Source: Eledone cirrhosa (Eukaryota). From it: a stretch of 64,000 bases of DNA. Made by a program: the position numbers and the translations under genes. This document shows, one piece after another, positions 1-55,199 of the stretch; the first letter of the stretch is position 1, and each line of letters opens with the position of its first letter. Under the pieces are notes generated by a model that was given only the letters and a program-made list of their open reading frames with translations, searched no databases and was not told the DNA's origin. The stretch is from the NCBI GenBank assembly GCA_964016885.1, contig OZ024741.1, positions 240,808,001 through 240,872,000 of the forward strand, written 5' to 3'.

Positions 1-490
1 ACAAATTAACCTTTAATTTATATATATACATATAATACTACCTTCAACTATTGTTATACTTACTATTGTAGAGAGGCAGTACCATAGCCAAAAAGGGTTA
101 TTTGAGGTGTGGTTATTGCTAGTTGAAAATTATTCTTACTATATATTGATATGTGCATATGTGTGTGTGCATATATATTTGTTTAAATGGTGTATATGAG
201 TGTGTACGTTTGCCTCTATATATGTCTTCTTGGCAATGTTTCTGGCACCCATGCATATATATATATATATATATATATATATATATATATATATATATAT
301 ATATATATATATAACCATATGAAGCAACTAAGCAGAAACTTTGAAGTCACTGCTGCTTCTCTAATTAGAAAATACATTTCTCCTCTCTCCCTACCAATAT
401 CGAGTGCTCATTCAATTTATATCTGAATGTTTTAAATACTACATTATTTTAAACACATTTTCTTATATACATATATATACATACATGTAT

Positions 491-613
491 AATAATTGTT
501 TCTACTTTTGGCACAAGGCCAGCAATTACCCAGTACATTACTGGTTCTTTATTTTATCGACCCCGTAAGGATGAAAGGCACAGTTAACCTCGGCGGGATT
601 TGAACTCAGACCG
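491..613 (-). mobile_element. SINE family B, 5'-truncated copy
   Basis: Matches other copies (GAGTTCAAATCCCGCCGAGGTTAAC...CCTTTCATCCTTACGGGGTCGATAAAATAAAG...GGCCTTGTGCCAAAAGTAGAAACAATTATT), with a B-box-like GAGTTCAAATC. Confidence 0.8.
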
Positions 614-629
614 TAAATAATAATAATAA

Positions 630-1712
630 ACAAGAAAGACTGTTTAATTTGTCCATCCCTATTTATTTTGTTATACATATTTCGTATAGAATAATATTGT
701 TTATGAATGTGAAGTAAAAATGAGTAGTAAGTCTTATAGACATATTGGTGCAACTTCTACTAGATTTAAGGAAAGGTTGTACACTCATTTAAAAGAGCTG
801 ATAAAAGATCTAACATAGCCCTGCCAGAACTAGTTTGGTCGCTAAAAAATAAACAAGTAGAATACTCCCTTTCTTGGTCAAAACTTTCACATGCTTTTCC
901 ATACATAAATGGATCTATATCTAGGGGGTCTGACCTCTGTACTACAGAGACTCTGGGCATCATAAATAGTAGACATAACATTCTTAATAAATACTCTGAA
1001 ATTTTTAATTCTTGTTTACACAAGATTAATAAGACATTTCATAGAGTATATAGTTAAAACTTAAATAATGGTAAATAGACCATCAAATAAGTAATTCAAC
1101 ATTCATTAATATTTAGATACATTATAACTTCAACATCAAAGTACAAATATCTAAAATTAGAATTAGTATCTAAGTGAATAGTATCTAATACGAAAAACAA
1201 AAAAAAATAGACTACAGTTCATACATGCCTCACTAGGAATTAAGCACCCAGTCTGATAACTTGATACCCTAGCCAGTTCACAAGCAGCAACGCCAATTGG
1301 AATATCTATCTCCCACATATAAAAACTACTACTTAAACATTTTCGGACTTATGCTTGCTGATCGGTGAAGGGAATAACACATATGACTAATAACATATCA
1401 ATGGATATTTACATCTCATGTGAACTTTTGTCTGAAGAGAACATGTAGGGCAACTGTTATACAACTACCATATGTCTTCGAAATACATAAATCAAAATAA
1501 ATAGGGATGGACAAATGGAACTGTCTTTCTTGTTTATTATTATAATAAAACTCCGGATGAACAAAAATCGTGGAGTGCTTGACATCTGTTAAGAAATTTG
1601 GCAGATTTTCAATCAACTTTCTTCCATTTTCAATCAACTTTCTTCCACTTTCAATCAACTTTCAATCAACTTCCTTCATTTTCAATCAACTTTCTCCCAC
1701 TTTCTTCCACTG
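630..1712 (+). mobile_element. Decayed Penelope-like element 3' part: GIY-YIG endonuclease remnant, degenerate hammerhead, tail ending in (TA)n
   Basis: Manual translation gives NNIVYECEVKMSSKSYRHIGATSTRFKERLYTH (~690-790) and WSKLSHAFPY...DLCTTETLGII...ILNKYSEIFNSCLHK (~875-1025), colinear with the PLE ORF at 13553-14413; CTGAAGA(1432)...GAAA(1480); GAGTGCT at 1573. Confidence 0.75.
1426..1498 (+). ncRNA. Degenerate hammerhead ribozyme motif
   Basis: ttttgt-CTGAAGA-stem II (gaacatgtagg/ccatatgtcttc)-GAAA-tacata-aa-tcaaaa; cleavage triplet appears mutated. Confidence 0.5.
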
Positions 1713-1829
1713 TATATATATATATATATATATATATATATATATATATATATATATATATATATATATATATATGTGTGTGTGTTGGTAGAAATCCACA
1801 GTGCTCAATTTGTTGGAAGAGAGCTTATT

Positions 1830-2087
1830 TAGTATAAACAAAGTTTCATACACTTAACATGTATGTGCTACCATTGGATTTTGGGTCCAATCATGACTAC
1901 CACTGTATATGGGGGAGGCACATTTAAACTGACCCATCATTTGGGCACATGGACTAAAATCTGGACCTTCATTCAGGCACATGGACAAACATATTTTTGT
2001 CCATGTGCCCGAATGAAGGGGCAGTTTATGACCCGAAAACCAATGGTAGCACATACATGGTAAGTGTATGAAACTTTGTTTATACTA
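1830..2087. mobile_element. MITE with ~48-bp terminal inverted repeats
   Basis: TAGTATAAACAAAGTTTCATACACTTAACATGTATGTGCTACCATTGG at left, reverse complement at right; second copy at 3440-3630. Confidence 0.8.
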
Positions 2088-2095
2088 TATATATA

Positions 2096-2436
2096 TCATC
2101 ATCATCATCATCATTTCGTTTAACGTCCGCTTTTTCCCTACTTGCAAGGGTGGGATGGGAACTGATTCTGGCTTGATTTCTACAGCTGGATGCCCTTCCT
2201 AACACCAACCTTATTTACAGTGAGTGCTGGGTGCTTTTTTTGCCGTGGCACCTCCACGACCACTTTGCAGTGGAATGATATGGACCCCAGTCCCTATCAT
2301 CTCATTTCTACAGCTGAGTAAACTGGAGCAATGTGAAATAAAGTGTCTTGCTCAAGGAAACAACACATCACCCGGTCTGAGAATTGAACTCACAACCTTT
2401 CGATTGCAAGGCCAATGCTCTAACCACTAAGCCATG
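2096..2436 (-). mobile_element. tRNA-headed SINE family A with RTE-type 3' tail and (TGA)n end
   Basis: Minus strand reads A-box TGGCTTAGTGG, B-box GAGTTCAATTC, tail CCCACCCTTGCAAG..GGGAAAAAGCGGACGT then (TGA)n. Confidence 0.85.
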
Positions 2437-52456: not shown

Positions 52457-52486
52457 TACATATAAAAACACACACAAATACATATA

Positions 52487-52726
52487 CCATATTTCCCAGC
52501 ATCGAAGACGCTACTTTTTTCCTAAAATAAGTCTCAAAAATCTACCATGCATCCTGGAGGCTGAAGGTTGACTTTATATAGAAGGACTGGTATAATATTT
52601 TACACAAACGCCTCCCCAAGAATGACATTCACTGTCCACATTGATGGGATTTGAACTCAAATTTTTGGTTGTCAAAATTAGGGTGCATCCTCGAGGACGA
52701 AGCGTCTTCGGCGCCAGGAAATATGG
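52487..52726. mobile_element. pogo/Tigger-like MITE
   Basis: TA-CCATATTTCCCAGCATCGAAGACGCT ... AGCGTCTTCGGCGCCAGGAAATATGG-TA. Confidence 0.75.
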
Positions 52727-52967
52727 TATATAAACACACATATGCTCACAGATAAATATGATCATATAAACACGCAACCATGTTCACACGAACACATATA
52801 CACACAAATGCATAGACATAAACACACGCACAAATACATATAAACACGCATATTTGCTCACAAATAAATATATACATATAAACGCACACAGATGCTCACA
52901 TGAACACATACACACACACACACACACACTCACTCATGCTCACACAAAGACATATACAAACCAAATA

Positions 52968-53390
52968 TTAATAATTGTTTCTACTTTTGGCACAAGGCCA
53001 GCAATTAACCCAGTGCATTACTGGTGCTTTATTTTATTGACCTCCGTAAGGATGAAAGGCAAAGTTAACCTCGGCAGTGCTTGAAGCTAGAACGTAAAGG
53101 GCCATAACTCTATGCTGCAAAGCATGATGTCTGACGCTCTACCGATACTACCAAACCATGACGTTGTTATGATATTATTATTCACTCAGAAGGGCGGTGG
53201 ATTGGCATTATTGGTAGAGGGTCGGACGCCATGCTTTGACGCATAGAGTTACGGCCCTTGCCATTCTGAGTTCAAATCCCGCTGAGGTTAATTTTGCCTT
53301 TCATCCTTATGGGGTTGATAAAATAAAGTACCAGTAATACACACTGGGTAATTGCTGGCCTTGTGCCAAAAGTAGAAACAATTATTATTC
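52968..53390. mobile_element. Two SINE family B copies head-to-head (52968-53156 minus, 53192-53390 plus)
   Basis: Family consensus in opposite orientations, ~35-nt gap. Confidence 0.82.
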
Positions 53391-54243
53391 ACTCACAAAT
53401 ACATTTAGTTATCCACCATGTTAAGATCGAAAACAAAGTTTATATATATATATATATATATATATATATATATGTATATATATATATATATATATATATA
53501 TATATATATATATATATATATATATATATATATATATATATATATATACACACATTCACACACATACAGACACATACAGACACATACAGACACAGACAGA
53601 GACATTACTTCTTAAGGATTCTATCTGACTTAAAAAATTATTTACCATTTCAACAGAAGTTATGCCAGAATTTTCTTAATTCTCTGGATTTGGTTTGTCA
53701 AATGAAAACACATAACATTGACTATATCTAGGACGTTGGAACAACAACAACTACAACAACTGCTGCTACTACTACTACTACTACTACTACTACCTCAGCT
53801 ACCTGCATCACCACAACCACCACTGCCACTATTACTACTACCACCATCACTACCACCTTCACAACCACCACTAGCACAACTACTACTACCAACACTACTA
53901 CTACTACTACTACTACTACCATCACTACCGCCACCACCACCACCACCACCGCCACCACCACCACCACCACCACCACCACTACTACTACTATACTGAAATT
54001 CAGAAATTCTTCTTGGAAATATATTTCTTAAAACAAACTTTAATCTGCTAGTTTTTTCTTTTGGTATTTTAAAGTTATTTTTGCTAAATAATTCACCAAC
54101 AAAATCAATTATTTCCCCCATCCTAATTACATCCTAATTAACCCTTTCTTTGCATTTATATTTATGTGATTAACTACTACGTGGTAGAATTTGCTTTTTT
54201 CTTTTATATGTGTGTGTGTGTGTGTGTGTAAATATATATATAT

Positions 54244-54618
54244 ATACATGTGAATATAGAATTTTATATATATAAAGTTTAATATAGAAATGACTTCAAC
54301 AAGACTAGAACTGTTTCATTCAAAAGAAATCATCAGACTTTCCAAATGATTTCTATTGAATGAAACAGTTCTAGTTCTGTAGCAGGTGTTTCTATATTAA
54401 ACTTGATGTTTACTTTCTACTAATGCATTGAGTATCTTACTAATTAATATATATATATATATATATATATATATATATATATATATATATGTAACTGTTT
54501 TATTCAATAGAAATCATTTGGAATCTGATGATTTCTTTTGAATGAAACAGTTCTAGTCTTGTTGAAGTCATTTCTATATTAAACTTTATATATATAAACA
54601 TCTATATTCACATGTATA
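54244..54618. repeat. Compound fold-back (three related arms) around (TA)n
   Basis: 54244-54370 inverted versus 54493-54618; internal inversion 54274-54330/54345-54404; GAGTATCT tail-like motif at 54430. Confidence 0.7.
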
Positions 54619-54669
54619 TATATATATATATTTACACACACGCACACACATATATATATATATATATAT

Positions 54670-55199
54670 ATTAAAATACAAATATTAATAAAATAGATGT
54701 TTTTTTTATCAATAAAATTTTATTATACATATTTCGGAGGTACAACAGTATGTCCTCATCAGAAAAATATAATGATACATGACATACCCTGAGTTGTTAA
54801 ATGGTTAAGATTTAATCATATTTATTTATTAATATGTATAATTGTTTCTACTTTTGGCACAAGGCCAGCAATTATCCCAGAGTATTACTGGTATTTTATT
54901 TTATCGACCCCGTAGGGATGAAAGGCAAAGTTAACCTCGACGGGATTTGAACTCAGACCATAAAGGGCCGTAACTCTTTGCTGCAAAGCATGGCGTCTGA
55001 CCCTCTACCGATACTGCTAATACACCACCCTTAATATTAATATGTATAATAAAATTTAATTGATCAAAAGAACATCTATTTTATTAATATTTGTATTTTA
55101 ATATTAATAATTCTGGAAAATTATTTTTTGTAGAGTGCTTCCAATCTACTGTAAAATTCATTCTTTGATGTACTCATTGAATCTTGTTTAACTCTTTAA
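54670..55199 (+). mobile_element. Fold-back hammerhead cassette with GAGTGCT tail, interrupted by a SINE B
   Basis: 54670-54732 inverted versus 55040-55102; GAGTGCT at 55133; SINE B 54841-55031 (-) flanked by the duplication TATTAATATGTATAAT. Confidence 0.78.
54716..54770 (-). ncRNA. Type-I hammerhead ribozyme motif
   Basis: Minus strand: atattttt-CTGATGA-ggacatac[tgtt]gtacctcc-GAAA-tatgta-TA-ataaaatt. Confidence 0.75.

Follow-up and report, generated by a model that had tools for sequence, protein, structure and literature searches.

A conserved bulged hairpin lies directly 3' of the insertion ends of Penelope-like retroelements in Eledone cirrhosa and other animals

We analysed a 64,000-nt stretch of the Eledone cirrhosa genome (the window; contig OZ024741.1 of GenBank assembly GCA_964016885.1, positions 240,808,001 to 240,872,000), in which a first-pass annotation had described a CTCC...GAGTGCT motif about 60 nt before the point where otherwise dissimilar repeat cassettes meet (TA)n. 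The motif is a bulged hairpin in the tail of truncated Penelope-like elements (PLEs) of the Hydra clade and not a pair of linear words: CTCC and GAGT are opposite strands of one stem, in which ACTC pairs with GAGT and GCT dangles. Inserted copies have two alternative end points; both lie in an AU-rich patch, 1-8 nt upstream of a hairpin. A stop before the first hairpin (hp1) leaves a tail-less end, and a stop before the second (hp2) leaves an end that carries hp1 and a spacer, which together are the PLE tail. The motif had been proposed as a cis signal at the 3' ends of PLEs; it is indeed common to several families and present in autonomous elements, although it is a fold rather than words, its anchor is the 5' junction, and its recognition by the reverse transcriptase (RT) is something that we infer.

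The hairpin follows the pattern RCUC-[variable stem-loop]-UN-GAGY-RCU, in which RCUC and GAGY form the lower stem, UN is a 2-nt bulge in the 3' strand, the stem-loop above varies and RCU-N-U dangles. GAGTGCT is the variant of this genome, and other animals mostly carry GAGCACT. The base after RCT is variable (C in 31/66), and positions -8 to -5 before the hairpin are A or T in 88-95% of cases. RNAalifold, which had been suggested as a check for conserved structure, recovered the fold when 11 copies were simply aligned with MAFFT, and 5 of 8 pairs were double-changed. Among 85 hits chosen by sequence alone, with the bulge and inner stem left free, inner positions 1-3 were paired in 84, 73 and 66%, values that 1000 shuffles did not reach (at most 69, 62 and 55%), and the first bulge base was U in 75 of the 85. 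We also aligned 66 sequences, namely 11 window copies and 55 of 69 hairpins from the loci of other animals (the 14 dropped were near-duplicates plus three judged to be chance). This alignment was 96.6% paired and held 79 double-change cells, compared with 27 after shuffling; the outer pair and the bulge U were selection criteria for it. The hairpin is a real, conserved RNA element.

Comparisons with other animals were based on 100 loci, 80 of which were the best of 466 from metagenome contigs and 20 of which came from bacterial assemblies; the contigs of both kinds are evidently host-animal DNA. A structural descriptor of the hairpin gave 71 matches in these loci and 0-5 in shuffles. The bare pattern showed no enrichment in the largest assembly searched (156 matches versus 153 in a reversed control), and the loose structural descriptor alone was weakly enriched in the window (10 matches versus 1-8 in shuffles); discrimination by pattern needs context or inner pairing. 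A model built from the window copies alone ranked the equivalent site first in other animals, where it reads GCTC/GAGC ACT, and 26 of 30 examined hits of a model search from the hairpin outward lay in a PLE context, some of them being training sequences. Where the order from an intact 5' junction could be followed, the hairpin occurred twice, as hp1 and then hp2, in 17 tandem pairs with a gap of 34-56 nt and a start-to-start distance of 57-83 nt. In these pairs an ATGG follows hp2 by 15-39 nt, and hp2 opens into an ORF (open reading frame) of ~700 aa in 12/15 tested, so that the motif is present in the termini of autonomous PLEs. Across 167 loci, tail-less ends stopped at -1 to -8 of hp1 in 25/30 and tailed ends at -2 to -4 of hp2 in 12/14; most junctions share a few T/A bases with the target. 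Published consensus sequences, as given in the supplement of PMC8557442, agree with this arrangement: Hydra-1_Ajap starts 2 nt before hp1 and continues with hp2 and then ATG, and the ends of Hydra-2_Amil and Hydra-2_Ajap are hp1 plus tail. The bacterial assemblies (L081-L100; G001-G005) hold contigs with Hydra PLEs and TA repeats, a host-animal contamination that is heavy in G001.

Within the window, the inverted partner arm stops at -5 to +1 of the hairpin's first base in all 10 elements that have such an arm, and nine of these arms run on into TA-type repeats; six other candidates lack an arm. Since the arm stops at the hairpin's base, the hairpin opens the tail, the extension found at one end only, and an optional, one-sided tail on an inverted pseudo-long-terminal-repeat (pLTR) pair was seen in 10/10 paired elements. 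The tight positional link is with the junction directly 5' of the hairpin, rather than with one 60 nt downstream. The 60 nt of the first-pass annotation most likely represents the hp1-hp2 spacer of this lineage, an extrapolation from other animals made because tailed ends there stop just before hp2.

We also aligned reads to 26612-26900, using two contig sets from one sample and two restriction-site-associated DNA (RAD) libraries; a third of the words sampled from another window element also occur in their source. In both RAD libraries the most frequent loose end lay at 26722, with a (TA)n consensus (6368/34468 and 7563/36904 reads; as RAD reads begin at one restriction site, these counts are reads and not loci), and read depth drops by about a third at this position. 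Within the hairpin, the read variants (those at 5% or more were listed) were one bulge substitution and two loop insertions.

The window is AT-rich (33% GC) with 215 TA runs, and holds 20 copies of GAGTGCT (100 shuffles gave a mean of 3.5 and a maximum of 9). All 10 positions reported earlier are correct, and the further ten comprise 63099, 24492 (minus strand) and eight within a SINE-like (short interspersed element) repeat; the latter were rejected as members of the motif, their context being different and a CTC partner lacking. The spacing to (TA)n reported for 8 of the 10 cases also holds, at 55-61 nt by our measurement (402, 55 nt; 9472, 61; 15869 minus, 56; 25457, 61; 26111, 61; 26698 minus, 60; 41063, 60; 55133, 59), with a per-position background of 0.018 for a first TA run 55-62 nt downstream. 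The two outliers are 1573, at 133 nt following a tandem expansion in its tail, and 7101, at 31 nt. CTCC precedes GAGTGCT by 10-27 nt in 8/10 copies, with none at 25457 and ATTC at 55133. The description of the tails as dissimilar applies to different lineages, whose tails are unrelated, and does not apply within two groups that are alike at 73-93% ({9472, 25457, 26698} at 75-93% and {26111, 41063, 55133} at 73-91%; shuffled background 52+-5%). Given these two groups, the eight spaced cases represent about four independent lineages. The 402 copy, which lacks a pairing partner and a hammerhead and does not fold, may be decayed or due to chance.

In the usual unit, (TA)n is followed by a truncated arm in inverted orientation, then by a forward arm containing a hammerhead, the hairpin, a further ~60 nt and (TA)n again. 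The forward arm has kept a predicted hammerhead core, 57-70 nt before the hairpin, in 6/15 window candidates. Structure-aware searches added hairpins at 15264, 28433 (minus), 63063, 1800 (minus) and 3690 (minus) to those annotated earlier. The features, by coordinates and strand (plus, minus, or unstranded), are:

402..408, plus: lone GAGTGCT, 55 nt before (TA)n
617..684, minus: inverted tail-less partner arm of the 1573 element, ending 3 nt before the hairpin equivalent
696..1021, plus: decayed C-terminal GIY-YIG remnant of a Hydra-type PLE
1432..1484, plus: core of a type I hammerhead, 65 nt ahead of the hairpin
1550..1579, plus: hp1 of the 1573 element (ACTC stem, TG bulge, GAGT GCT), tail to 1712 with internal tandem expansion
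1800..1824, minus: added hairpin of the GCTC/GAGC ACT form, immediately beyond the palindrome arm 1826-2091; outside the training set of the first model
3690..3716, minus: added hairpin, ACTC/GAGT ACT, 46 nt before (TA)n, no partner arm; outside both training sets
6641..7067, unstranded: inverted-repeat pair with hammerhead core 6941-6998 (plus); the tail-less arm reaches (TA)n at ~6640
7069..7107, plus: hp1 with long inner stem and 31-nt tail
9182..9456, unstranded: inverted-repeat pair with hammerhead core 9349-9390 (plus)
9456..9478, plus: hp1, tail 61 nt, (TA)n at 9540
11447..13295, minus: long inverted tail-less arm with hammerhead at 11533 (minus), ORF C-terminus at 13125-13295 and a SINE within
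13323..14437, plus: disrupted 3' portion of a Hydra-type PLE ORF, comprising the RT thumb, an Asn-rich insert, a degenerate Cys linker and GIY-YIG
15174..15205, plus: hammerhead core, altered at a single core base, 59 nt ahead of the hairpin
15264..15300, plus: hairpin variant GCTC/GAGC TAT with compensatory outer pair, tail 61 nt; the partner arm stops 4 nt before it
15869..15896, minus: hp1, tail 56 nt, with hammerhead 16001 (minus) and partner-arm hammerhead 16096 (plus)
25447..25524, plus: 3' half of a hairpin and tail, 5' strand lost; upstream tail-less arm with hammerhead 25364 (minus)
25928..26084, unstranded: inverted-repeat pair truncated within the hammerhead
26090..26117, plus: hp1, tail 61 nt
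26638..26697, minus: 60-nt tail from the hairpin to the distal (TA)n junction
26698..26719, minus: hp1 of a high-copy family, proximal junction at 26722 in reads
26719..27077, unstranded: inverted-repeat pair with hammerheads 26825 (minus) and 26971 (plus)
28433..28459, minus: hairpin ACTC/GAGT ACT, 45 nt before (TA)n, of a family shared with 3690-3716
41040..41069, plus: hp1 after a minimal 28-nt palindrome, tail 60 nt
41395..41434, plus: weak hairpin candidate GTTC/GAAC ACT (E 0.026), ATG directly after; possibly a second-hairpin remnant
54668..54762, minus: tail-less partner arm with hammerhead; a SINE (54824-55042) lies between it and the tailed arm
55110..55139, plus: hp1 ATTC/GAGT with a U-G wobble, tail 59 nt
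63063..63105, plus: orphan well-formed hairpin, no hammerhead, partner arm or (TA)n nearby
2222, 7441 (minus), 28842, 29858, 47708, 51528, 63709 and 63716: GAGTGCT within the SINE-like repeat

Several structures stand beside these elements. The forward copy at 11447-15259 lacks the last ~35 codons of the ORF and ~0.9 kb that the inverted arm has kept. At 25460-25615 there is a perfect 156-nt palindrome centred on a TA run, with two identical tails head to head; it reflects a double insertion that is very recent, or else a fold-back in the assembly. A 72-nt tandem array at 7571-8136, whose unit includes a TA-like flank and the terminal ~25 nt of the tail-less arm in the hammerhead element at 8240 (minus), is either a tandem expansion of a junction or the product of repeated re-initiation. 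In one family (9465-9505, 26672-26712) GAGUGCU can pair ~15 nt downstream instead, in a fold that excludes the hairpin. Hammerheads of other families at 32269-32340 (minus), 16990 (plus) and 19174 (plus) had no hairpin match downstream, and the tail-less end of the 16990 copy lies in (TA)n. The palindromes 27104-27444, 57859-58293, 18453-18590, 3426-3644 and 54205-54658, most of them beside TA runs, likewise gave no hairpin match; just outside one arm of the 54205 palindrome there is a degenerate hairpin candidate at ~54415-54440. The motif as a degenerate hammerhead was rejected, as the true cores sit 57-70 nt upstream of it. The hairpin was unmatched by Rfam covariance models among the 150 listed of 284 window matches, as it was in six loci, and matches to Rfam microRNA families, which were below gathering score, were rejected as TA-repeat artefacts.

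Heavily 5'-truncated insertions of Hydra-clade PLEs are the best explanation of the window cassettes. As had been noted, the 1573 copy is preceded by a GIY-YIG remnant (696-1021) and a hammerhead (1432). What remains of ORFs at 696-1021 and 13125-14437 matches a large family of PLE proteins; a first protein search with the window ORFs returned no relatives, a search with the endonuclease part returned two, Pfam gave no useful match for these ORFs, and among solved structures no relative was found by sequence. Hydra-clade elements are described as targeting (TA)n and having hammerheads, with RWK, DKT, CxCX5C and CxxC/CxH as their diagnostic motifs (PMC8557442). All five full ORFs of hairpin-bearing relatives have RWK or RWR near the N-terminus, and 5/5 have ADKT (DKG changed to DKT), parts that the window ORFs and remnants lack. 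CxCX5C is the commonest linker spacing among 57 relative proteins; the linker of the window ORF is degenerate and aligns to relatives at 36-38%. The inverted arm at 13125-13295 and the relatives share a C-terminal GIY-YIG with CxxC and CxH around a conserved E and N, and no CCHH, and insertion into (TA)n was seen in the window, the reads and the loci of other animals. These motifs, plus a by-eye likeness to the supplement proteins, point to the Hydra clade, of which a family from Octopus bimaculoides is listed (PMC8557442). Neptune or Nematis PLEs (CX2-5CxxC linker, CCHH endonuclease) were rejected, the linker of the relatives being CxCX5C. At 13900-14100 (plus) an in-frame Asn-rich insert between the RT thumb and the endonuclease resembles inserts of rotifer Penelope elements (PMC3846280). 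Viral contigs held no relatives of the element and no tandem-hairpin pattern.

In our view each hairpin is probably bound by the RT, which would begin copying immediately 5' of it from a nicked (TA)n primer, and use of both sites would produce the one-tailed inverted repeat. Binding, priming and twin hairpin use are steps that we infer from the arrangement of the ends. The full-length RNA would present two tandem hairpins between the hammerhead and the start codon. The element's protein would bind a hairpin and thereby bring the AU patch just 5' of it into the active site of the RT; there the nicked (TA)n strand could pair through its 3' end with 2-5 template bases and prime internal reverse transcription. 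With hp1 used on one target strand and hp2 on the other, perhaps by a dimeric protein, both strands would be primed. The two cDNAs would then join at their truncation points, forming a head-to-head palindrome in which just one side carries a tail, the arrangement of the window elements; hp2 would not be copied into tailed ends. This would be consistent with in vitro work on a Poseidon-clade PLE, in which reverse transcription began internally at two sites, one at each boundary of the tail, both target strands were extended, RNA downstream of the start was required, and a dimer was predicted (PMC11167929).

Nonetheless, this mechanism needs to be interpreted with caution, considering that a number of our results weigh against it. 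The in vitro precedent comes from another clade than Hydra. The hairpin is marginal in energy, with 0/9 regions folding better than shuffles (z -0.4 to -1.4) and another structure being the lowest-energy fold in 3/4 window regions; such a fold, in competition with others, would need a protein to hold it. Strand evidence is thin (5 G-U versus 1 A-C), and the sense strand folds better than the antisense in 9/12 complete hairpins, often by little. Ends fell out of range in 5/30 proximal and 2/14 distal cases, one of the 12 distal matches (L146) aligns on the TA repeat only, a cruder tally over whole pLTRs gave 19/27 and 4/5, and many loci are members of few families, which makes the end counts non-independent. 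By eye, the 5' ends of Hydra-1_Crog and Hydra-1_Obim in the supplement of PMC8557442 have only a divergent GGGC for GAGC. In the window, no hp2 was seen but for the weak candidate at 41395. The read evidence covers the proximal junction, as the reads were cut at the TA run and the distal side was unread, and the absence of stem variants from the reads (0/17, with ~2 expected by estimate) is not significant alone.

Other explanations of the same ends should be weighed against RT binding at the hairpins. RNase P is known to cut 5' of tRNA-like elements, and a host or element nuclease cutting a few bases 5' of the hairpin, with the RT starting conventionally at the new RNA 3' ends, would likewise account for the junction rule. 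Together, the lower stem and RCU correspond to a tRNA D-stem and positions 26-28, and the pattern matches tRNA-like D-arm sequences in bacterial assemblies. We regard such processing as unlikely, since no cloverleaf is formed (ARAGORN found 0 tRNAs in the window and 17 loci), hp1 is left uncut in tailed copies, and the Poseidon element initiates internally to the RNA 3' end with no cut needed (PMC11167929). Alternatively, the GIY-YIG endonuclease might read the motif in double-stranded or extruded DNA while resolving an intermediate. GAG-YR-CTY is near-palindromic, the Penelope tail is reported to be required for endonuclease recognition of plasmid DNA (PMC11167929), and the tail has been ascribed to endonuclease-mediated resolution (PMC8557442); yet compensatory changes within an inner stem whose length varies agree with a single-stranded fold, the distal end is set by hp2, which the inserted DNA lacks, and the base after RCT varies (31/66 C), so that we give a DNA-level signal little credence.

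There is also a slim chance that the hairpins serve translation control, hammerhead folding or packaging, and that ends cluster since AU patches pair well with a (TA)n primer. The position of hp2 15-39 nt ahead of ATG, the AU-rich patches before both hairpins and the marginal fold would suit this, but the whole region is AT-rich and the ends still fall in two narrow, hairpin-tied windows across 34-56 nt spacers. Least credible, and nearly negligible, is an absence of function, with the motif due to shared descent of a few local repeat families or to chance: the reduction of eight spaced copies to about four lineages, the stemless copy at 402 and the reversed control (156 vs 153) speak for it, whereas covarying conservation across elements with unrelated tails in several animal groups largely refutes it.

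The Hydra elements themselves, PLE tails and the two internal starts are already known. The hairpin-bearing elements resemble the published Hydra clade as short PLEs with a C-terminal endonuclease, hammerheads and (TA)n targeting and, in the full-length relatives, RWK, DKT and CxCX5C (PMC8557442). The published consensus files contain the hairpin, and the accessible text of PMC8557442 describes neither it, nor its duplication, nor a link to ends ("hairpin" occurs 0 times in the supplement text). In our literature searches the hairpin pair was undescribed; subscription papers, Repbase notes and figure images were outside their scope and could hold it. Poseidon_Ac is similar in having two starts that bound an optional tail, extension of both strands, a required 3' RNA and AT-rich targets (PMC11167929; PMC3846280). 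Its tail is 30-40 nt, as opposed to 57-83 nt in Hydra relatives and ~85-100 nt in most window copies, and its start is placed "in an AC-rich stem loop", with no conserved binding motif and no repeated hairpin in the accessible text (PMC11167929).

The bulge resembles the arginine sandwich motif of HIV TAR and 7SK, in which a bulged U is followed by G-C, A-U and G-C pairs, and the hairpin invariants U, G, A and G match the TAR contacts U23, G26, A27-U38 and G28 (PMC6189040). The Hydra hairpin differs in having its bulge on the 3' strand, and two consensus ends have GGGC by eye. Hydra proteins have an Arg/Lys-rich stretch before WFNPP. The likeness to TAR is presumably convergent and offers a lead. 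A more specific proposal, which we hold tentatively and consider somewhat doubtful, is that an RT related to telomerase acts as a dimer and binds both tandem hairpins, that each hairpin sets a start a few bases 5' of itself through its TAR-like bulge, read by an Arg-rich segment, and that simultaneous priming on both strands of a nicked (TA)n yields the one-tailed inverted repeat. If so, a 25-nt hairpin behind an AU patch would be a portable start tag that could make any RNA a template, and tRNA D-arms might serve as accidental tags. The GCUC/GAGC stem followed by R-C-U is shared with the tRNA D-arm, which is another lead; in the hairpin, a second stem-loop replaces the D-loop, and there is no anticodon, T or acceptor arm. 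An origin from a tRNA or the head of a tRNA-derived SINE was rejected, no cloverleaf being found. Small cis RNA structures position an RT on its template in other systems, including LINE (long interspersed element) 3' stem-loops, hepadnavirus epsilon and the telomerase template boundary. In contrast to these, the Hydra signal lies 3' of an internal start and is tandem, with the distal copy outside the inserted DNA.

How PLEs choose their internal starts and come to form inverted repeats with an optional tail is a long-standing question, and the in vitro study placed the starts and not the signal. With a hairpin directly 3' of each end, a single rule can cover the length of the tail, its asymmetry and the formation of palindromes. 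As PLE RTs are the sister group of telomerase, an RNA element that positions the template would bear on the origin of template boundaries. In practice, the hairpin gives annotation an exact marker of where Hydra elements end, and it could provide a minimal handle with which to direct RNA-templated insertion into TA repeats.

The rest of the window holds a single-exon protocadherin ORF at 44119-46596 (minus; 825 aa, five cadherin repeats scored) and the SINE-like repeat (2081-2436 and seven more), which is often at TA or ATC runs and in which GAGTGCT is coincidental. RT-encoding LINE remnants occur at 2424-3245 and 4305-5681 and are presumably of RTE type. A 135-aa frame at 48819-49226 (minus) resembles what we take to be a Helitron helicase fragment. 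A U4-like Rfam match just above gathering score (62-199, plus) and a U6 fragment (47829-47874, minus) are probably pseudogenes, and satellite arrays are present with units of 34 nt at 21532-22606 and 44 nt at 41592-42460.

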